From positions 186,001 through 250,000 of the forward strand of contig BAAIJX010000008.1 of the NCBI GenBank assembly GCA_054600435.1: 64,000 nucleotides of DNA. Reading direction: 5' to 3'. The notes beneath the pieces are model-generated. The model was not told where the DNA came from, did not search any database, and was given only the letters and a program-made list of their open reading frames with translations. Source of the stretch: Neophaeotheca triangularis (taxonomy: Eukaryota). Numbering within the stretch: the first letter of the stretch is position 1; every line of letters begins with the position of its first letter. A program made the translations under genes and the position numbers. Shown here one piece after another: positions 7,919 through 56,254 of the stretch.

Positions 7919-10231
7919 GGGGTTAGTTTTGTTTTCCCGCCTTCTCGTTCTTGGTGGGGGTTTTTGAGGGGCGATAGAGGAGGTGGAGTGGAAAGAGGGG
8001 GGTGAAACTGTGGTGGATGATGGGGTGGCAGTGTTTTCGAAGTTGCGAGATCGTGGGAGTGGGAGTGGGAGTCGTGATGATGGTGGTGGGGAGTGCAGCT
8101 GTGACTCACTGTAGCTGCCTCACGGTGGTTCGGTGGAGAAAGTCTTGGAAGAAACGGCAGCAAATGGTGGTTGAAGGAGGTTTCCCTTCCGCTTCCGGCC
8201 TTCTATGCTTGTTTCGTGGCGATACACCAGCATTGGCGTTGTGGATGAAGCGTTTTGGTAGAGAGACGACTTACTTTAAGAGAATGTGGGGCTCCTATGA
8301 CCTGAAGGCCGTTTTCAAGCATTTGGGGGATTTCTTCCTAAAATCGAGTGAGTGTTCTGGGAAGCAGTCTTTCGTTCAGGTATGTTTGTTGTTTGGCTGT
8401 TATTGAGATTTCTTCAAGCAAGCAAGTCACCTGAAAGCGCGGTTCTCGCGGCAAGGATTACAGTCTAGTAGGTATAACGAATCGGCATGCAAAACTGTAA
8501 GGCGCGCGCATTACAATCCAGTCTCCGCAACGATAGGTCTTCAACCCCAGTTTGTCCTCGACTTTTATATACACGCCATCTTGGTTCGGCAACGTGTCGA
8601 TTCCTATATTCGTTTCCGGACCGGTGCCTCCTCGCAGCATTATTGAAGGAGGAAAGATGTCCATTTTGAAATCTGAAACCGGGCCGTCCTCTTCCATACC
8701 TACGATCCGCGGCAATCGGATTCGTCCTGGTAGGGAGGGAAAGGGTCTGGCATTTTTGTTCGGCCTGGGGGAGGCTCGCGAGTGTTGGATGAAGGCCTCG
8801 TTGGATGCTGGGCTGGCTGTTGAGAGGTCTCTGGTCGAGTGGTGCTGCGGATGGATGGCGGGGAAAGGGTGTGTTCATTGTTCTGTTGCTACGGGATACT
8901 GGCTACGGTAGTTTCTGAGGATGGACGTCTGAGGAGCGTCGGAATACGACGGTATCCTGTTGGATATAGGGGGTAAGGTGGCTTATGATGAGGTGATGTT
9001 GGATGCCGTTGAGCAAAGAGGTAAGGTATGCCTTCTTGCTACGCTACGTCAACTTGACATCCATGCATCTTCCAGCATTCGATTCTTCTACTTACGGAAG
9101 TGAAGTTGAAGTGGGTCGCTACCTATTGCTACTCCAATACCTTAATCCAAGTGAAAGCACATTGGGTAAGGTAATAAGCAAAGTCCAAACCGTACCTTAC
9201 CATGCGCAAAGCAGTCATGGGTACCTAGAAGTTTCTTCTCCAGGACCTCGCGGTGAAGCGAGAGCATGATGAAAAAAAGAAAAGACTTGTTTCGCGTCCG
9301 CTAGAAGTAGTGCGATACCAGCGACACAATTGACCGTGAGTATGCGCAAGCACAGCGGCTCACGGTCGAGTGACAAAAATGGGAATAATCTTCAAAGGTC
9401 CCGTGGGACCGTTTCAGAGATTAAACTGAAAAGAACAGATACTACAATTTGATCAAAGCCAAAAGGCAAAGAGAGCTGGAGGAGAAGGAAGAGGAAAGGG
9501 AGAGGGAGGGGAGTGGAAGGGGAGCGTGGTTTTGTGTCTGCGAGCGAGGCCCGTGCGGGGGAGTTTTGGGTGACTCATCATCCTCCGGGAGAGCACTCAC
9601 GTGATGTGAGTCAGGAGCAGTCTGTAGGTTACCTTGGCTCGAGCTTGGGTTGATTCAGGGGTCAATTGATATTCAGAGCGAAACGACAATCATTGCTAAG
9701 TAATGGGAAATTGAATCCCTCCGGTCTCGACACAATCTTAGATATTGTGTAGTTACATATGTTTGTGGGATGGGCCGTGCTCTTTGCACACGTTACATGC
9801 GCGGACGTTCGACCACTCTTGGAAAAGCTCAATCAGCGCCGCTCTGCTTTCTGATGGATGGTCTGAGACTTGGAGAACGTACAGACTCAGCGCTCGGCTG
9901 GTCCGAGGGTCCAGCAACCTGGATTCATTGGCTTGATGGTCGGCAAAGGTGTGTAGTCCGCCCGAAGCAGCGTGTATCGGACGCCAGAGTGTGCTTGCTT
10001 TTTGGAAAGGGCTGAGAGCAGTGATGTGAATGCACGCGGCGTTGTTGCGGATATTGGGACAAGCCTCTTTCGCTAACGGTGTCGTTCAATGGTCGTATCT
10101 TGTTAGATCGGCAAGACTCCTGGTGCTTATCTTCTCCCTTTCAAAGTACCATAGCACGACCCATTCAACCTTCCAGTGGCTTGACAGCTATGCAAGCTTC
10201 TTTTGAAACTTGGCCTTGAACAATTGAACCC

Positions 10232-11011: not shown

Positions 11012-11391
11012 GGTGGGCTAGAGAGGTAGTGGTTGTCTGTGATATCCGTGGAGTGTAGAGAGCAGTGCTTGTGTGCCTTTCGCGCTATCCCCTAGCGGAT
11101 TGAGCACTCATGCAGTAAAGTGGACGGTTAGATGGTGGAAGGAAGTTCAGTCGCGAATAGGCCAAACCCAAGCAAGCGGGTGACAGTAAAACAGGGCCAG
11201 TTCTTGGCGGATTCTACCACTTTGTATACTGTCCTTCGAGCTAAAGCTGGCCCCGTTTTACTGTCACCCGCTTGCCAAGTAGCTTCAGCCGAAAGTCTTG
11301 GCATAAATCTCAAATTTGACGTCAGCCTACCCATCGACTTCACCTTCAGACCATTCGATGAACGCGACGAAAGTATGAAGCCGTAGCAACA

Positions 11392-15933: not shown

Positions 15934-16041
15934 GCAGCTACGGTGGAATGGGCAAGGACTTGTTGCTGGTTCGCATTGGAAGGACCCAGCAACTCCGAAC
16001 GCGAATCCCAGCAACAAGTCCTTGCCCATTGCATCTCGCTG
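15934..16041 (+). ncRNA. Candidate pre-miRNA-like hairpin
   Basis: Perfect 23-bp inverted repeat: AATGGGCAAGGACTTGTTGCTGG (15947-15969) / CCAGCAACAAGTCCTTGCCCATT (16008-16030), with further pairing inside and outside. Intergenic. Strand inferred from the upstream intron-like signals. Confidence 0.55.
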
Positions 16042-21810: not shown

Positions 21811-24487
21811 ATGGACTTCGTAAGCAATCGCACACGTATACGCCTCCTCCCTCCACCCTCACTGACGGCCTCAGTGGTCACGGCTGATTGGCGGCACCTA
21901 CGCTCCAAAGCGCACCCCCGTCGCACCCGCCAACGACCCCCAAGCCCGTCTCGCCCGATTCAAGCGCGTATACGGCAGCATTCAGCAAATATGTAACCGA
22001 CCGCGAAACCTCTCTACCGAGGGACCTCTGCTGGAGCAATTGTACGCCTACCTTGAACGCTTGGCGATACTCATCCGAGAGGAAGTAAGAGCTCCGATAC
22101 CGCATCTGTGCCTCCAATATGCCTCGAGCACGCAACTGTATGCTTTCGTTGCCAGAGCTGCCAAGGTCAGCCAGTATGAGCCGGTCGTGCAGGCTACAAT
22201 TTCCGTCTTTGCCGCCCTCGTCGACAGCGAAGAGGAAGACTTTCTGTCACAACCCATCTTTGGCAAAAGCCTCATGGATCTAGTCACGAGAGTGGTAGAC
22301 GGAGGAGCTGTGTTGCTCGGCATTGAGTCGGAAACTGCAATACTGGAGCTGCTCTTCACCATTGCGGCAAAGATACGGCTCCAACCAGAGATCCTCCCAG
22401 TATGGTTTACTTCCAAGGCCAAGCCTGAGCCGGAAGATGTTTTTGTCCAAGAGAAGCAGAAGTTCGTTGGCATCACGCAGAAAGAAGACTTCCCTCTATG
22501 CTATCTTCTCATTGATCGTGTTCACCACGAAGGGCGAATAGGGGATTTTGCCCGGACAGGTTTACTCTACATTTTCGAAGCGACTGGGCGCTCACCAAAC
22601 CTTGAAGAGTGGGTTGTAAGCTCTGATCTGCCTACTTTGATGGCGTCTGGTTTGGGAGCGCTCTATAGCCAGCTCAGTCGTGAGTTGAGCGTCTTGCACC
22701 CAGATGCCACGCTGCCGCCTGTTCTCGCTATGAGCGATTACAGCACGACACACGCTCGTGCCACGGCAGAGAGCGCATTTTCTGAGAGGCATCTGAGTCA
22801 TATGGTGACATTCTTATCATACTTGACATTTTGGCAAGATGTACTTGACCACTGCAAGTCTGTTGATGTCAAGCAGACTTTGCTCGACCATTTCCAAATC
22901 TTGTTCCTACAGCAACTACTCTACCCGTCTTTGCTACAGTCTAGCGATACCGACGGTGGAAGCTCTGTTGCAGTTCTCACGTACATCAGTACCGTCCTCG
23001 ATTCTTTAGATCACCAGGAGCTGCTCAAGATGATATTGTCTTACCTTCTCGCTATTCCTGACAAACCCGAAACTGCGATCTCTGAAGAGCCTTCCGGGGC
23101 CACACGCCCTTCCATGCCAGCAAGAAGCCCAACTGCGATGAAACGAAGGCAGAGCCTTATGCTGCTTGCCGCACACAAGGACCCTCAAGACATCATGGAG
23201 CCGACATTATTTAATCTGGTCGACCTCGTTCTGAACAGCGTCGGGTCGAGGAACAGCCAGACTGTATTTGTCGGGTTAAAACTCGTGTCTACCCTCTTGG
23301 CTCCGCAACAGAGGAAGCATGCTTTGGGAACGCTAGTGAAGACCGAGCATGTGCCGGACGAAAGACCGAATCGGACAGCCGGTGCGCTCGACATGGAGCT
23401 AGAACAATACGCCGATCTCGTTGCCGCTTTTGGCCGCCATCGTGGTGATGAGGATGCTTACGATGCGCTGTGTCAAGACATAAGGCAGAGCATCGAAGCG
23501 CAGATACCAGTCGAGCCTTCGAACACATTGAGGCATCCAATGCCCGGCCAATACCTGCTTCAGCCTCACGATAGCCTGACAGAATCCTTAAGAGCTACTC
23601 TGAGCACGTTTTGGTCCAATAGCATCGACGTCAACCTTGCCTTGACCCAAGCCATGATATCCATCGCCCTTTGTCTGGAACTACGCTTGGATAGCTGGCT
23701 TACTCTCGATCCGGCTAGCTATGCTTACGACGATGTCGACAATAATAGGCCTGAACGCTCGTGGCACGCGCATTTGGAAGACGAAGAAGCCACTGCATGG
23801 TCAGCTGCACAGGGAGCCTTGAAACGCCCCGTGTGGCCTGATATTGGCAGGCAGCCAGCAATTTTCACCACCCTTTCGAGCCTGGTAAAAGAGTACCACA
23901 CTGTACGGAACGCCGTGTCCAATTTCGACCACATGATCGCCGCCCGTAAAACGATGTTGCAAGCCGCTAGCATCGACGCACCATCTGACGACCTGGCTTC
24001 CGAAGAGAACAGCCCACAGGCTGATAGGCATCTGCAAAGTGCTCAAGGCAGCAAGTCCCGGGCTTCTGACAGTCGTAGCTTGAGTCAACAACACGTCACC
24101 AATCAGGTATCCAGTCCAGCGCCAGGCTCGCCCCACCCAAACGCCACCACGCAACACCAAGCATCCACCCGTTCCGATTCTACGATTGGTGCCACGTCAC
24201 GCAACCCTTCGACGAGCACAAAGGCAGCGGTACCACCTCTTTCGCAAATCTTCCAGCCGCCTCCGCCAGAAACGCCCAGTACTACTGACGTTTTGATGGA
24301 GCAGTTTGAGTTCGCAAGCGCGGCGTCACATGACGAGCAAAATGAAGCTGAGTCTGGAAAGCGCACCGCAAGCTTGAATCACGTTTTAACCAACGCCATC
24401 GTCTTGCAGGAGTTCATAATGGAGCTCATGGCGGTTTTGCAAGTTAGGGCCGCGGTGCTTGGAGAGAGGGAAGTGAGAGTTGCATAG
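21811..24487 (+). CDS. FHIP / RAI16-like (FAM160) protein; intron 21820-21874
   Basis: Spliced N-terminus MDF|WSRLIGG; HHEGRIGDFARTGLL and LMASGLGALYSQL motifs; C-terminal LTNAIVLQEFIMELMAVLQVRA. Confidence 0.9.
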
Positions 24488-38254: not shown

Positions 38255-40107
38255 GAGGATCGTGACGGTTGTCCTCAAGCTGGAGGAGGGTTCGTGGTGC
38301 GCTGTCTTTGGGTTCCCACGTTGCCGCATGTGCGCAAGCGGATGCAGGTGCCGGTCATACAGACTCCATATTGCAAACAAGTGAAAGATGGTTTTTGTAG
38401 CGTCGTCTGGCACGTGACCAGCATGCCTCGAATGGGCTGGTCTGCGGTTGCGTGAAGCTTCACCCTCGCCTACAGTATATGCTTCTCCGACCACATGCCG
38501 CATCTCCTGTAGCTACGTCTCGGAATCTCTAGTGTTAGACTGCAAATACAGCTCCCTTTCAGGAAGGTCACGCCCAGATCTCGGCTGGACGCGAGGTTTC
38601 GTTGTGGGGAGTTCTGTACCGGACATAGCATTACCATTTTTTCTCACATCAATGTCGCAGACAGCACTTGCAAGCATTTGTAAACACCGTCAGATACGCG
38701 GACCCAGCAACGAGCAATGAAAGGGGACCCCTAGTCCCTTCCCAACGTTCGCGGCGAGGGTATCGATACCTTGTGGCACGAGTGCGCGCAGGGTCGAGCA
38801 TTGCTTGATAGACTGTGCGGTTCCGCATACCGTGGCCTTCCCAGCCGTGAAGCGAGTTGCAGCTTCATTGCTTCGCTTCACTCCCGGGAAGCCTTGTGGG
38901 TGGCTTCTTCAAGCCAATGTCTTCAATGCGTGCCAATGGCTGCGCATGCGCGACGAGGATGGAGCCCGGTCCGTGGATTGCGTTTGTTGTGGTTTCGGTG
39001 TTGGGGGAAGGGACACGTGTGAGCGGCGAAGCTATTGAGTTCGTCGTTGGTATCGAGAAGACGACTTGATGTGTCGATTTGGACGGTTTGGCTTTCCGTT
39101 CGCCTTGTTGCGCTCCTTTTACTTCAGCTCTCCTGAGCTTTCATGGCGAGAATGACAGAAATTACTTTTTTTCGAGGTGACTTTGTAGTCCTGATGATTC
39201 ACCCAGGATTGCCAGCAGAGATGAAATCGTATCAATATCTGCCTATAGGAATCTGCTGCAGAGATGACACAATTGTGCCTTCTGGCGCGTCGTGTAGCAT
39301 CCATGCAAGGTAAATTTCGTTCCGCAAGCGTTTACATACATGTCATGCCCATCAAGCACGCCGAACCGGTACAGTGATAAGTTACCTCGCATCGCCACGA
39401 GCCGTGCGGTCCAGCACATTGCAGTGCGGCAGAGATGGCGCAACGAATGTCAGAAGTAAATCTCGAGCCCTGTACAGTAAGCAGTGAGTGTACTCTACTT
39501 GCGGCGAAGCGATCTTCCTCAGCGCCATTATTGAGTGAAATGCCGAAAGCGCATCAGCTCGCGTCCAAACTCGCGTCCCACCGCAATGGAAAGCTCGATG
39601 AGCGAGACCTCGATCGCCGGCCTCATGCATGCAGCATGCGGCATGCCCACACAAAATGGCGCAAAGGGCGAGATGATACATAAGCATAAACCCAGCCACA
39701 GCCATGGCGGCCCTCAAATCCTATAAACCTTGCAAGACGACGTGAACGCAGCCACGAAAGACGCGAACGTGCGCCCGCTTCAACGCGTTCGTTCGCACAG
39801 AGAGTAGGTGGCAGTGAGGCAGTAGTAGTGATATCAAGCTAAGTTCAAAGACGCGTTGCGACCGCGCAGCTCCGACAGTCTGACAAGGTTGACAAAAGTC
39901 TCGGCGAGGGTTGAGAGGAAGAAAAGTAGTGAAAAAAGCGTTGCTGGCTTTGTTTCCAAAGGCGAGTTCGGGAGGGCTTGGGGCGATGAGAGTTTGGCAA
40001 AGCGTAAGGTTCCAGGTTAGGTTGGTGCATGCGGCTTTGGTGAATTCTTAGCTGCGGTCTGTCCCGGGTGTGGCTGGAGTTGGGAAGTGTAATGGAGACA
40101 GATGGTA

Positions 40108-51081: not shown

Positions 51082-52516
51082 TCATTCGCAACACCCCTTT
51101 CGCATCACTTTCGCAGCGTGGGACTCGTAGCGGGGTTCCCCAGCCACAAGATCATACCCAGGGGCTGTGCCGAGCCTCACCTTGGATTTCTCCGCCTCTT
51201 CCTTCCTCTTCTCCTCTGCTCGCTTCTCTTGCGCGAGCTTGAGCTTCGCTGCGATCAAGTCTCGCTCCTTCTTGCTGCGTCGGCCTGGGCCCTGTAAAGA
51301 TCGTCAGTACACCGTTGAACGTTTGAAACGAGCTGTTTCGCTTACCCTGGGCTTTGCGATGCCGCTTGGCAGTCTCTCCGCGGCACGAATAAACCGTGCA
51401 GGCTTCCTGGCCACCGGGGCGCGAGCGCTCTCGCCGTCGCTGGGCTCTGCAACGGCGGCGGGGGCGATGGGGGCGGGGGGTGTGGGAGCCGTGGCCTGAG
51501 GAGAAGTCTGGAGATTGCTAATGTCAGCTAAGCGCTCTAACATAGGCTCCCAAATCAACGTGATGACGGATATCCAAGCAGACTTACAGGTGGAGGCTCG
51601 TCGGCCTTAGCGCCTGCGGCGCTCTCCTCGCTCTTGAGAGCGGGAGAAGCGGGGGGAGAAAGCTTCGCGGGGAGGGGGTTGGCGAGACCACCCTCCGCCG
51701 TGGTAGGAGCGGAAGAAGGCGCGCTGGCCTCAGAGCCCTCGGCGCTATCTTGGCCTAGGGGGCTGGAGGGGGAGGGGGAGGTGACGGCGGCGGGATGGGG
51801 GCCAACGGTCCCTTCCTCAGGGCCCTCCAGCTGGCCCTGAGGGCTGGCCGCAGCCGACGGTGACGACTGGTAATCATTACTATTAGCAAATCTGCGCTGA
51901 CATCAAGTTTCTGTTGGCCGTTTAGAGGCTTCTGATCAGACTTACAGACGAGCGCGAGCTCGCTTCGGCGCTCAAGGCGCTATTCTGGCCCTGAGGGCAC
52001 AAGGAAGAGGGGGAAGAGGTGCCGTCGGCGGCCTCCGTGGTGAGATCCCCCTCGGGGGCGGAGACGACGGTCTTGGTGGCCTTAACGGCCGGAGAAGGGG
52101 GCTGAAATTTCACACGTTAGCTGAATGCTACGATACCGAGGTTTTTTGGGCGTTTGCAGGTGAAATGGGTAGCGGGGGGGGGGGGGTTACTTACGGCGGA
52201 GGTTGCCTCAGTCGCGCTGACCGAAGCGGCCTCGGCGGAGTCTTGCTCCTTGACCTCGCCGTCGGCGGCGGATGTTGCTGCCTGTGGCAGGCGTGCGGTG
52301 AGCTCACCCCTGGGGGTGGCGGAGGGTGGCTTGGTGGTGGTGGTGCCCGGGGGTGGAGTCTGGGGCACGGTTATCAATTATACGCTCGACCACCCAAAGT
52401 GTTGGCGATGTGGGAGGGCACATCGAGGCCCTACTTACAGATGGCGACGCCTCGATATCGTTCTCCTTGCTTCTCTCGGTGCGCTTCAAGTGGGCAAGGC
52501 TGCCAGGGGCTGGCAT
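51082..52516 (-). CDS. Multi-exon orphan gene encoding an Ala/Pro/Ser-rich protein with a basic C-terminus; 3' end uncertain
   Basis: Exons 52439-52516, 52195-52359, 51946-52101, 51588-51866, 51346-51507 and <=51291, bounded by GTAAG donors and branch/CAG acceptors, all in frame. Confidence 0.7.
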
Positions 52517-52923
52517 GCTGGGCGATGGCAATTCCAAGGTATGCGGTGGTGGGAGAAGAGCCCACTTAGAAGGATAAGAGTATACGAAACCAGGTATAAT
52601 GTCGCAGGTGAGATTTAGCCGAAGGTACACTTGGGAGAGTAGGGGGTCCAAGCGCAGGTGATGACGGCGGAAGTTCACGTGTCGAGGCCCAAGCTTTTTC
52701 TTGCTCAAGGTCTCCCACTTCCACACCCGTCTTCCTTCTTCCTCTTCCATCTCTGCAACAACACATCCACAACCACAACCACAAAACAACACGTCAAGGA
52801 AGACTTGTACTCATGCCATTGGCCCAGAGTACCATGGCACCGTTGGCCAAGAGCTTCCATCAGGTATTTCATCTTCACCTCACTTGCGTGCAAAATCGTT
52901 TTCCGCTAACAACATCTGCCAGA

Positions 52924-53299
52924 TTCACGTCGCAGCCACAGCAGAGAGCATACCATAGCAGAGGAGCATCCGATTGGCCGCATTGAGCAACAATACACAC
53001 CTTGGTCATGTCAAGGGTGCACGAGGCGAAGTTTCAAACTTGCTGCCAAGGCACAGTGGGCTAGCTCTTTGCGTTGCTGGTGCAGCGTATTATTTCCTTG
53101 CGAGGCTTACTGCTCTGCCAGCGGCAGTCCCGAGCGGTTCCCTCCGTGAAAGAAACGTTGTGTGGTTCAAATCCACCTTCTTACGGTTGCTTGGGCAGTA
53201 CTTGCTCGACCAGTGAGCTTCCCTTGGACTGTTCGAAGATTCGGCGCGGGTTGTCGAGCGTGCCTCTGCTTGGGGCTTTCAAAAGCTTCGACGCGTGAA
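52924..53299 (+). ncRNA. Structured repeat unit 1 (long closing stem plus T-loop hairpin)
   Basis: TTCACG/CGTGAA, GAGAGC/GCTTTC and AGCAGAGG(52957-64)/CCTCTGCT(53263-70); GTGG-TTCAAAT-CCAC at 53162-76. Confidence 0.6.
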
Positions 53300-53358
53300 A
53301 GGTATGTCTCAAACGACACTGTCAGGGGTCTTACAAGGCTATGTCTACCCCCGACAAA

Positions 53359-53642
53359 CTGCAAGCAGCTACGGCAGAGAGCGTATACAGCAGTTGTCTC
53401 GCAGGGCCGCGCCTGGCGAATAGCACCCTCAAATACACAGATAGGCCGAGGGCACGTGGCTAGTCAGGAGGCGTTGCTGGTGCGGTTAAACCCAACCACC
53501 GGGCCATCAGTCTGACTGATCGCAGCCTGGGGGTAGAAATGCCGCTGGGTTCAAACCCCAACACCCGTTCTACACTTCGGTCGAAGCGGGGACATCGGCG
53601 TCCTGCCAGCACTGCTGTTGCGCTTTCAGAGGCTGCTTGCAG
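53359..53642 (+). ncRNA. Structured repeat unit 2
   Basis: CTGCAAGCAGCT/GGCTGCTTGCAG, GAGAGCG/CGCTTTC, CAGCAGT/ACTGCTG and GCAGGG/TCCTGC; TGGG-TTCAAAC-CCCA at 53546-60. Confidence 0.7.
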
Positions 53643-53668
53643 CCCTTTCCTAAATCTAATCTTCAATA

Positions 53669-53934
53669 CAGGCAGCTACGGCAGAGAGCGCATCAGCATT
53701 GACTCCCAGGGCCACGCCTGGAGAATACCATCCCTCGTTTCATAGATGGCAATGGGATTCCAGGGCTATCCAGGTCGTGTTCCCGGCACGGTGGATGGAA
53801 TGACCAAAGGCTATGCCAAATCTCGATCAAACACCGTAGGGTTCGAATCCCTCGAACTCTTATACACTTCGGTCGAATGATGGAGACCGGCGTCCTGGTC
53901 GAGCTCTGCTTTTTGCGCTTTCATTGGCTGCTTG
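53669..53934 (+). ncRNA. Structured repeat unit 3
   Basis: CAGGCAGCT/GGCTGCTTG, GAGAGCGCA/TGCGCTTTC and CCAGGG/TCCTGG; AGGG-TTCGAAT-CCCT at 53838-52. Confidence 0.65.
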
Positions 53935-53968
53935 CAGGTCTTTTTCAAGATCGAGTATTCGATACAGA

Positions 53969-54268
53969 CTTGCAGCATAGTCACGACAGACGACACATCA
54001 CGGAGGTGCAGCTTCAGGGCCGCGCCTGGCGAATAGCACCCTCAAATACACAGATGGGCCGAGGGCACGTGGCTAGTCAGGAGGCGTTGCTGGTGCGGTA
54101 CGGACCTAACCACCGGGCCATCAGTCTCAGAGTCTGACTGATCGCAGCCTGGGGGTAGAAATGCCGCTGGGTTCAAACCCCAACACCCGTTCTACACTTC
54201 GGTCGAAGCGGGGAAATCGGCGTCCTGACCTGCCCTCCGCTGATGTGTTGTCCTTCCTTGCTTGCAAG
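53969..54268 (+). ncRNA. Structured repeat unit 4; interior nearly identical to unit 2
   Basis: GACGACACATCA(53989-54000)/TGATGTGTTGTC(54241-52), CGGAGG/CCTCCG and TCAGGG/TCCTGA; T-loop hairpin at 54168-82. Confidence 0.7.
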
Positions 54269-54556
54269 CCGTATCACCACCAGGGTGCCGCAGCCTGGTG
54301 GTTGGGATGTCTATGCTGGGGAAATGATTAGTTGGAATAGAACCTGCTGTCACTTGAGACCTTTGCAACTGTATAGTCAGGGGTCTCTTGCTGGCAGTGA
54401 GGGACACCATATGAATCCTCAAAAAGCATACGACATTCTCAACGGGTGGCGGAGGAGGGTCTTGGTCCAAGGTGGGACCAACTTCAGATGGTAAGTGACA
54501 CCCGCGCCTGGTGCATAGGACGATAATTTACATGAGCGTTCCGCAGGTACTACTCG

Positions 54557-55405
54557 CTACCGAACATCGATCTTAGTGCCCATCCAGCTCGCCCCCGCCG
54601 CCTCCTTCAACCAGTTCACCTCGACGGGCTCAACATGCGCTCGAACATACTCAAGCAGATCCTGGACGCCGTTGTCCTCCCAATCCTCCCCATCGCCGAC
54701 CAACAGCGCAAACAAGCTCACTCGCGACGATCCACCGAGCGCCCCCGCCACCCGCTCCTCTGCAGCAGGGTCAAGCAAGCACAGTCTAGTAGCGGGAAGA
54801 TCTGGATGAGCAACGGAGGCTGTGGAACACATGGCGGGAAGATGTGAATACAAGAGATCGTCAAGAGGTCGAAGCAGAAACACCACGGCTATGTGCTCTG
54901 AAGCAGGAGGTTTCGAGGGATTGGCAAAAGAGTCGGACAAGAAACTCTCGGGTCTGGAAGCTGAGGAGAGAGCTTCAAGATGGCGGGTTACGCTGTTGAA
55001 GCCAACGAGGAGGCGTTTCTGAATTGGGGGCGTTGGTGGCGTAGAGTTGGGAGATAGTGCCGTATTCGTTTGGTCATCGTGCAGACCAACAGCTCTCTTC
55101 CGTTTCGTGCCCTTCTTTCCCTTGGATGCAAAGGCTTGCTGCCGATGAGCGCCAACTGGTTCCAGCACACTTGGCGACATTAGCAAAGACTGTGCACGTT
55201 ATGTTTGTGGCCATAGTCTGTCATCCTACCCAACTAGCTTTTCTACGAGTATATCATGTTGAGGCTGACCGAGGACTTTGCTGTGCGGTATCAGCGCGCT
55301 GGAAAGTCTCATATGTATTGATGCCTAGGCGCACGAGTCGGTCTTTGAATAGGGCGTATCGGTTCTAACGACAGGCCTTGGCGTTTTCTTCTTTGCTGTG
55401 GCCAT
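54557..55405 (-). CDS. POP3: RNase P/MRP subunit Pop3 (L7Ae-like), two 5' introns
   Basis: Spliced N-terminus MATAKKKTPRPVVRTDTPY; VLEPVGAHR, LLVGFNSVTRHLE, LYSHLP and VRAHVEPVEVNWL motifs. Confidence 0.82.
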
Positions 55406-55550: not shown

Positions 55551-55585
55551 TGAGGTGAGGTGAGGTGAGGTGAGGTGAGGTGAGG
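55551..55585. repeat. (TGAGG)n pentanucleotide repeat
   Basis: 7 tandem copies. Confidence 0.9.
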
Positions 55586-56254
55586 TTATGTGAGGTTGAC
55601 GATGCAGTGCCAAGGCTTCCTTATCGATTAGCAAAAGAACTGTACTTACGGTACTAGTAGTTAAGGTACGTTATTAGTATCCACTAGCTCGGCCAGCGAA
55701 CCTAAATCATCGACACGTCAAATTATATCACCGAAAGAAAGACGCGTTTAGCTAAGCCTTGTCCTCACGCGCAAAAGCACAAAGCAGCAGCACCTCATCT
55801 TTCTCGGGAGTCTGGCGTTTTCATCTGAAGTCCCGTCCGTCCGTCCCTCCCTGTTCGTCGCGTCGCGCTTACTCATCAGCGCTCGGCTGGTGCCTTGGAC
55901 AAGGATTGGAAGACCTGAGGCAACCAAGCAACCAACCCGGATGCTGCATGCACTTTCAGAGTTCCAACCTGCCCTGCCCTGCCTCAAGCTCCCGTCACAG
56001 GAAACAATCTTAACGCCATGACAGCAACACTACTACTACCTTGACCAAAGTCACCACCTGCGGTCAAACTTGCAAGACTCTTGCTACTTCTCATACCACC
56101 TCAGTAACTAACTCTTCACTCTCTGGAGCTCTTGCGCTTTCTTTCACCTTCCATACCACCTGCCAACGCACCCAGATCATGAAGCCTCGATCTTGATTGC
56201 CACTACTACTACTACTACTACCCTTACTACTACTACTGGTAACCGCAACGCAAA

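Follow-up and report, generated by a model that had tools for sequence, protein, structure and literature searches.

A tandem array of uncatalogued structured RNA units with a tRNA-like T arm at one locus of a fungal genome

In this study, we describe a tandem array of four related units, each built as a long stem around a core that carries a T arm. The locus contains repeats, stems, pairing-preserving changes between copies, a T arm and splice-site-like sequences, and we conclude that the array is a structured RNA repeat that is real, under selection and not yet catalogued, so far known from a single locus of a single genome. With respect to its function, we favour, at a probability of roughly 40%, a spliced Pol II polycistronic precursor in which RNase III-type cuts in the outer stems would free an RNA resembling the elbow of a tRNA.

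The array and its genomic setting

The window, by which we mean the whole 64-kb stretch of DNA that was analysed, is fungal nuclear DNA. Its CWC15 protein is 65-70% identical to proteins of Vermiconidia, Pseudocercospora, Meristemomyces and Zymoseptoria, the best named relatives, and on this basis we take the host to be a Capnodiales-type Dothideomycete. The four units are present at the coordinates where the sequence-only reading had placed them, together with further elements and neighbouring genes:

52924..53299, + strand: unit 1, diverged and expanded, core about 52970-53257 (sequence, folding, alignment)
53162..53176, + strand: T arm of unit 1, a 4-bp stem and 7-nt T loop (folding, comparison)
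53359..53642, + strand: unit 2, core 53401-53606, T arm 53546-53560, bulged-C hairpin 53564-53590 (folding, alignment)
53669..53937, + strand: unit 3, core 53706-53898, T arm 53838-53852, hairpin 53857-53885 (folding, alignment)
53969..54268, + strand: unit 4, core 54014-54228, T arm 54168-54182, outer stem unlike that of unit 2 (folding, alignment)
54276..54302, + strand: small 9-bp hairpin directly 3′ of unit 4 (folding)
54304..54441, + strand: fifth element, a plain long hairpin lacking a T loop (folding z-score)
51100-52516, − strand: low-complexity multi-exon gene, its exon-intron blocks repeated in tandem, head to head with the array
54557..55310, − strand, 5′ end approximate: candidate gene for a Pop3/Rpp38-like RNase P/MRP protein subunit, convergent to the array
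9285-9479, − strand: U2 snRNA gene (Rfam, 143 bits)

The interval had been described as devoid of a credible ORF, and this holds, as each unit has stops in all six frames. Differences between units 2 and 3 fall at the three codon positions in numbers of 23, 24 and 24, showing no codon periodicity, and a protein-coding reading of the array is rejected. The T-loop motif GGTTCRANNCC occurs four times in the 64 kb, always on the + strand and once in each unit. For unit 1, the most diverged copy, nhmmer returned the best match after the three training units (E 0.013), and its local alignment to unit 2 scored 68.5 against a background maximum of 54.5 in 658 windows. Its alignment to unit 4 also exceeded all 658 background windows, whereas that to unit 3 (46.5) fell inside the background, and a covariance model built from the cores of units 2-4 fails to recover unit 1 (E 0.66). 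From these alignments we judge that unit 1 is a diverged homologue of units 2-4. The fifth element folds well on the + strand (z −4.53) and not on the − strand (z −0.59). One 11-mer is present twice, once in the spacer between units 1 and 2 (53320-53330) and once in the 3′ arm of this fifth hairpin (54375-54385).

The array is flanked by the divergent low-complexity spliced gene (start near 52516, − strand), whose overlapping ORFs had no match in a Pfam scan, and by the convergent Pop3/Rpp38-like gene (end 54557). The latter is named from PF08228, which four of its eight protein matches carry, one match being called an RNase P and MRP subunit; the ORF itself fell below the Pfam cut-off (E 0.0055). 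Its end lies 290 nt from unit 4, and its 3′ UTR may overlap the putative array transcript in antisense. Pop3/Rpp38 has been proposed to bind a K-turn in P/MRP RNA, according to the available part of that source (PMC1636426). No K-turn was seen by inspection in the array units, and we treat this neighbour as a coincidence. A short tandem repeat with a 5-nt period (55551-55591) lies between the Pop3-like gene and a ubiquitin hydrolase gene.

Folding, core architecture and selection on pairing

Each unit was said to be closed by a long stem, and its arms do form duplexes of −41 to −56 kcal/mol. This outer stem consists of a lower helix, an asymmetric loop with the unpaired AC of the motif AGYYAC, and then an upper duplex, the strands of which are 21-26 nt long, and hence Dicer-sized, in all four units; the upper duplexes of units 1 and 3 are irregular. 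Compared with shuffled sequences, unit 2 (z −4.24; 0 of 200 shuffles as good), unit 3 (z −4.21; 0 of 200) and unit 4 (z −4.58; 0 of 100) fold exceptionally well, while unit 1 is unexceptional (z −1.09, matched or bettered by 20 of 100 shuffles). When 854 windows of 285 nt are ranked by composition-corrected energy, units 4, 2 and 3 come 4th, 8th and 11th. Taken alone, the cores of units 1-4 have z-scores of −0.7, −1.2, −3.2 and −1.0, so that only that of unit 3 stands out. A scan for long-range duplexes gave a signal dominated by GC-rich coding DNA. Folding does not mark the strand: for units 2 and 4 the minus strand folds at least as well as the plus strand, and in the outer stems G.U and A.C mismatches number 11 and 7 (p 0.48). 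The array is assigned to the + strand by its T loops, by the splice signals and by the fifth hairpin.

Inside the outer stem lies a core of 193-288 nt, closed by a short terminal helix. This helix contains the homologous pair that had been described as G-C, C-G and T-A in units 2, 3 and 4, and alignment columns 1-216 contain it in just this form. By hand comparison, the core runs from a 5′ arm with an internal hairpin through an arm of variable length and a single pyrimidine to the T arm and a bulged-C hairpin, which in units 2-4 bears a UUCG/GG loop; unit 1 has no GG-bearing loop at the homologous place. In all four units the T arm has a 4-bp stem and a TTCRANY loop closed by G-C. The internal hairpin, for which covariation had also been claimed, does pair in units 2-4, but this requires a shift of 1 nt against the MAFFT alignment, and its full 5-bp helix is absent among helices with pairing probability above 0.3. 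A pseudoknot is possible within the 5′ arm of the core, in an ambiguous register.

Two models of the core were compared. Model A, a five-way junction, has 2 of 40 cells broken in its two distinguishing helices and four columns changed on both sides; model B, a three-way T-arm domain, has 5 of 56 cells broken and one such column. Energetically, A is preferred in units 1 and 3 and B in units 2 and 4, and as modelled both folds appear compatible with all copies.

That selection acts on RNA structure, as had been proposed, is supported by the pairing-preserving changes between copies. For five core helices, we compared pairs of units and counted how often pairing was kept among changed pairs, using a transition-biased null. 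Between units 1 and 3, 11 of the 12 changed pairs could still pair (p about 0.001), as could 11 of 12 between units 1 and 4 (p about 0.001-0.002) and 10 of 11 between units 1 and 2; since the sequences tested were also those in which the helices had been chosen by eye, these p-values are optimistic. Between units 2 and 3 the count was 5 of 6, which is not significant (p 0.15). Two columns of the T stem have changed on both sides. In a machine alignment of units 2-4 the covariation score was reached by 13 of 500 shuffles, and the cores of units 2 and 3 differ at 11 of 56 modelled stem positions against 60 of 134 positions elsewhere.

The copies are not all independent. The cores of units 2 and 4 are identical at 198 of 206 positions (96%) under different outer stems, and because of this near-identity the array represents three independent lineages, so that the family of four units suggested before stands as to its copy number but not as four separate witnesses. 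The arms of unit 2, in turn, match those of unit 3 (35/40 and 31/36 identical) far better than those of unit 4 (only 22/42 and 23/36). In the unconverted pair of units 3 and 4, the core is the better conserved part, identical at 135 of 183 positions as against 25 of 40 and 25 of 39 in the arms. Unit 2 thus combines unit 3-like arms with a unit 4-like core, and stem and core behave as separable modules. From this pattern we infer that the unit 2 mosaic arose by gene conversion between invariant blocks that flank the core.

Known RNA families and searches for homologues

The units had not been matched to consensus motifs of 5S, SRP, U snRNA, snoRNA or RNase P/MRP RNA, and a scan of the array against Rfam 15 likewise gave nothing better than E 0.35. 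Neither the array nor single cores reached the gathering threshold of any Rfam 15 covariance model, and elsewhere in the window only the U2 snRNA did so. ARAGORN reported 0 tRNA genes, with only inconsistent sub-threshold calls in relaxed runs. Class II tRNAs, tRNA-Sec and permuted tRNA genes resemble the units in their canonical T loop and, under one of our models, in the five-way junction, and the T stem of eukaryotic tRNA-Sec is 4 bp long, as in the array. The units differ from all three in that their T arm is not followed by an acceptor stem and in having neither CCA nor a shared anticodon loop nor a bulge-helix-bulge. A tRNA gene is rejected since the T stem is followed by a hairpin instead of a 7-bp acceptor stem, and CCA is missing. 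tRNA-Sec is rejected because a UCA-type loop is found in unit 1 only and is not kept in units 2 and 4, and because Rfam gave no tRNA-Sec match. For a permuted tRNA, a single 3-nt bulge takes the place of the bulge-helix-bulge, and circular ARAGORN runs made no consistent call; for tmRNA, ARAGORN reported 0 in nine of nine sequences at a relaxed threshold. The earlier description of the units as tRNA-like is thus apt as regards the T arm and perhaps a D-loop-like partner, but does not extend to an acceptor stem, CCA or shared anticodon.

Several other classes were tried and set aside. RNase P/MRP RNA, which the Pop3-like neighbour might suggest, is rejected because the CR-I and CR-V motifs, which form P4, are absent from all four units and Rfam gave no match. 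No C/D boxes are placed as in snoRNAs, and Rfam returned no snoRNA match. Neither a template nor an Sm site of the kind expected in telomerase RNA was found in the units. The core motifs of HDV, hammerhead and group I ribozymes are not common to the units, and no ribozyme of Rfam matches. A self-cleaving or otherwise catalytic array of a new class would nonetheless fit the compact multi-helix core with its possible pseudoknot, and the conserved CGAA strand of the units is reminiscent of J4/2 of HDV. By inspection, however, the HDV helix order could not be built, and we regard a catalytic array as very improbable. Variant HDV ribozymes do occur in fungi, as reported in the accessible part of the screen by Li and Breaker (PMC5640933).

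Searches beyond the window gave no homologue. Pattern scans hit 20, 0, 6 and 0 loci in viral, 2 in metagenome and 6 in prokaryote collections. None of these 34 loci exceeded 12.3 bits under the covariance model, which gives units 2-4 scores of 195-245 bits; as this model misses unit 1 too, distant homologues would escape it. Because fungal DNA is scarce in these collections and the patterns allowed little variation, the scans are silent on other fungi. With blastn, phage sequences returned nothing and plasmid sequences two 34-nt matches at E 0.4, and the proteins of the array's neighbours revealed no comparable locus in viral contigs. Our literature search found no description of the array RNA. 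Two screens for fungal RNA structures report 15 motifs (Li and Breaker; PMC5640933) and 17 motifs (Gao et al.; PMC8216456), none of them like the array by name, size or context. As described in the available text of both papers, rather than by alignment, these motifs do not resemble the units, and on the same footing neither Rfam nor the two screens contain a multi-copy tRNA-mimic family of such build.

Transcription, processing and the putative product

Signals for a spliced transcript accompany the array, and the following parts can be predicted:

52740..52863, + strand: predicted first exon, start approximate, of a putative transcript; a pyrimidine tract precedes a C/A-rich leader
52864..52922, + strand: predicted intron 1 of 59 nt, with GTATTT donor, CTAAC branch at 52906 and CAG acceptor
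53302..53671, + strand: predicted intron 2, with GTATGT donor and either a strong branch and acceptor (53656-53671) or a weak acceptor (53368)
54491..54546, + strand: further, weak candidate intron with GTAAGT donor and no consensus branch site

The predicted first exon opens a 28-codon ORF whose stop would, in the predicted spliced form, fall inside unit 1. The stem of unit 1 (52924-53299) leaves just 1 nt at the start and 2 nt at the end of the predicted exon 52923-53301 unfilled; by a post hoc estimate based on the density of such sites across the window, the chance of this fit is about 2e-5. Unit 2 would be intronic if the strong acceptor of predicted intron 2 were used. Each of the four T loops matches the B-box consensus; an A box is found in unit 1 and is absent from units 2-4, and runs of T5 occur only after unit 3 and inside it. 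Pol III is unlikely because units 2-4 have no A box and one T5 run is internal to unit 3, and a Pol III type 2 gene or SINE is rejected since the A box is confined to unit 1 and no T-run terminator follows each unit. The splice signals, the internal T5 and the missing A boxes lead us to favour Pol II over Pol III as the putative polymerase.

The same T loops could be read as leftover B boxes of a mobile or tRNA-derived remnant (SINE-like, MITE-like or a tRNA pseudogene), amplified in tandem and functionless. The B-box consensus in each unit agrees with this, as do the 5-bp direct repeat around the hairpin 11173-11274 and the tandem repetition within a neighbouring gene, which implies that local duplication is common. 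Against it, both sides of the T stem and of other helices have changed, a pattern that requires selection at the RNA level, and units 2-4 have no A box. RIP decay is rejected, as the array bears no RIP signature; no convincing flanking duplication was found for any unit, and the covariance model found no further full copy in the 64-kb window. We consider such a remnant quite improbable.

Splicing itself might define the product, in that unit 1, and perhaps unit 3, could be a back-spliced circle or an exon released by first-step cleavage, or all units could stay joined in one modular lncRNA, each unit having once been an exon whose closing stem joins its acceptor and donor. Consistent with this, the unit 1 stem starts 1 nt past a branch and acceptor and stops 2 nt before the GTATGT donor, unit 3 starts at a branch and acceptor, unit 2 has lost the AG and GT at the homologous positions, and a predicted circular unit 1 exon folds with its ends paired. 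The 3′ ends of fungal telomerase RNAs are made by spliceosomal cleavage, and in the source as available (PMC4299874) these RNAs resemble unit 1 in being a structured RNA exon that ends at a 5′ splice site. Unlike them, however, the array is multi-copy and short, with no template found and no Sm-like site in any unit. Further, both strong sites occur at unit 1 only, as unit 3 ends at a weak, non-consensus donor-like site; the spacer between units 3 and 4 (30 nt) is short for an intron, and duplication of an exon plus intron could account for part of the fit. We hold a splicing-defined product to be rather improbable; if splicing does free the units, they would offer a clean natural example of stem-driven circularisation.

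In the reading we favour, the locus would be a polycistronic gene of Pol II type for a spliced non-coding RNA, and the outer stem a processing stem recognised and cut by an RNase III/Dicer-family nuclease. The functional product would be the enclosed core of about 190-290 nt, composed of the multi-way junction, the short terminal helix and the 4-bp T arm. The GG-bearing loop of the adjacent hairpin could dock on the T loop, giving the core a tRNA-elbow-like surface through which, as a tRNA mimic that is itself not aminoacylated, it might serve a tRNA-recognising protein as scaffold or decoy. Polycistronic snoRNA and rRNA precursors cut by the RNase III-family enzymes Rnt1 or Pac1 show a similar design, in that their flanks pair into a long stem around the mature RNA. 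The array differs from such snoRNA precursors in having no snoRNA-placed C/D boxes, and its enzyme and cut sites are only postulated. The kept pairing of the core helices, the separable behaviour of stem and core, and the size of the enclosed loop, unlike the gap of less than 20 nt in well-supported fungal milRNA hairpins, argue for the core as product. The Dicer-sized upper duplex in all four units, the missing GG-bearing loop of unit 1 and the unremarkable core folds except in unit 3 argue against it. If true, this reading would add an unrecognised structured RNP RNA to fungi.

As working analogies, YrlA Y RNA and pri-milR-4 appear nearest to the array units. In the part of the source available (PMC4201824), YrlA exists in several copies, has a long end-joining stem around a tRNA-like module, and shows, like the units, a variable arm and T arm followed by a closed stem-loop. 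Its motif GNCGAAN0-1G recurs in units 2-4 (at 53580, 53872 and 54202), but on an internal strand near the 3′ side instead of near the 5′ end, and it is absent there in unit 1; with 122 matches in the window, the motif is common by chance. A Y RNA proper is rejected on the position of this motif, and the units further differ from YrlA in having no separate D arm and a 4-bp T stem. None of the 23 window ORFs scanned belongs to the TROVE/Ro60 family, and our literature search found nothing on a fungal Ro60. A bolder proposal, which we think unlikely, is a new fungal tRNA-mimic class and counterpart of Y RNA, in which the closing stem of exon-sized units positions either the spliceosome, for back-splicing, or an AGYYAC-guided nuclease. 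Its members would be stable, possibly circular RNAs of 270-380 nt with a T-loop elbow, two alternative conserved folds, and exchangeable cores and stems.

The other analogy, pri-milR-4, leads to the reading of the array as a cluster of milRNA precursors. Here the 21-26-nt upper duplexes would be the products, and the tRNA-like loop would help in processing, RNase P/Z-type cuts excising it ahead of Dicer, as in Neurospora. The milR-4 sequence of N. crassa is flanked by two tRNA-Ala genes, the second of which is followed by the star strand, and milR-4 production needs RNase Z (PMC3547838, in the part available); that a tRNA sits in the loop of pri-milR-4 is our reading of this text. On that reading, pri-milR-4 is comparable to the array as a multicistronic hairpin of a fungus in which a tRNA element separates the duplex strands, but it contains true tRNA-Ala genes and depends on Pol III, whereas the array has a non-tRNA loop of 190-290 nt and spliced, Pol II-like signals. 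Beyond this precedent, the strand length in all four units and the plain hairpin that follows in the array in the same orientation are consistent with milRNA precursors, and so is a basal motif that recurs at two near-perfect hairpins (23-29 bp), listed here with a third, weaker repeat:

15934..16041, + strand: near-perfect hairpin with a 23-bp perfect duplex (inverted repeat 15944-16033), downstream of a 999-aa ORF
11160..11290, − strand: near-perfect 29-bp hairpin (inverted repeat 11172-11275), 160 nt upstream of CWC15
38837-38891: weaker inverted repeat with 19-nt arms, AGYYAC 14 nt from its base on the − strand

Fungal mi/milRNA hairpins of Tiers 1-2 have less than 20 nt between their strands in the available part of that survey (PMC9757828), in contrast to the 190-290 nt of the units. 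The core is also far bigger than a processing signal requires and has no 7-bp acceptor stem, and the irregular duplexes of units 1 and 3 fit poorly. Across the 17 window genes, the best mRNA-strand target penalty (5.0) was worse than that of the antisense control (3.0). One candidate target, 22760-22779 (+) in a RAI16-like gene, matches the 5′ arm of unit 3 at 18 of 20 positions but in sense orientation; it was rejected and is probably a chance match (nhmmer E 0.67). In fungal milRNA supplements, six arm-motif search terms gave one unrelated match and none that was relevant. All things considered, milRNA precursors appear somewhat unlikely, yet they are the strongest rival of the reading we favour. 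If the arms are nevertheless the product, the array shows how a hairpin gene for small RNAs can build up around a tRNA-like domain, and AGYYAC would be a candidate sequence signal for fungal hairpin processing.

The basal motif extends beyond the array. The base of the hairpin at 15934-16041 repeats the first 10 nt of the arm motif of units 2 and 3, and the hairpin is preceded by a branch and acceptor and a 48-nt intron-like stretch; by its sequence it is a candidate milRNA precursor. The hairpin at 11160-11290, with a basal AGCTAC and a 5-bp direct repeat on its flanks, is possibly a hairpin RNA or a MITE. In both of these, the best inverted repeats of the window, one strand carries AGCTAC immediately ahead of the stem. 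AGYYAC lies within 14 nt of 4 of the 25 longest inverted repeats, unit 4 included, against about 0.4 expected, of which only 11172-11275 (p about 0.017) and 38837-38891 are independent because the motif was defined with 15944-16033 in view. In some cases its AG may simply be a splice acceptor. On sequence grounds, the recurrence of AGYYAC fits a shared nuclease signal.
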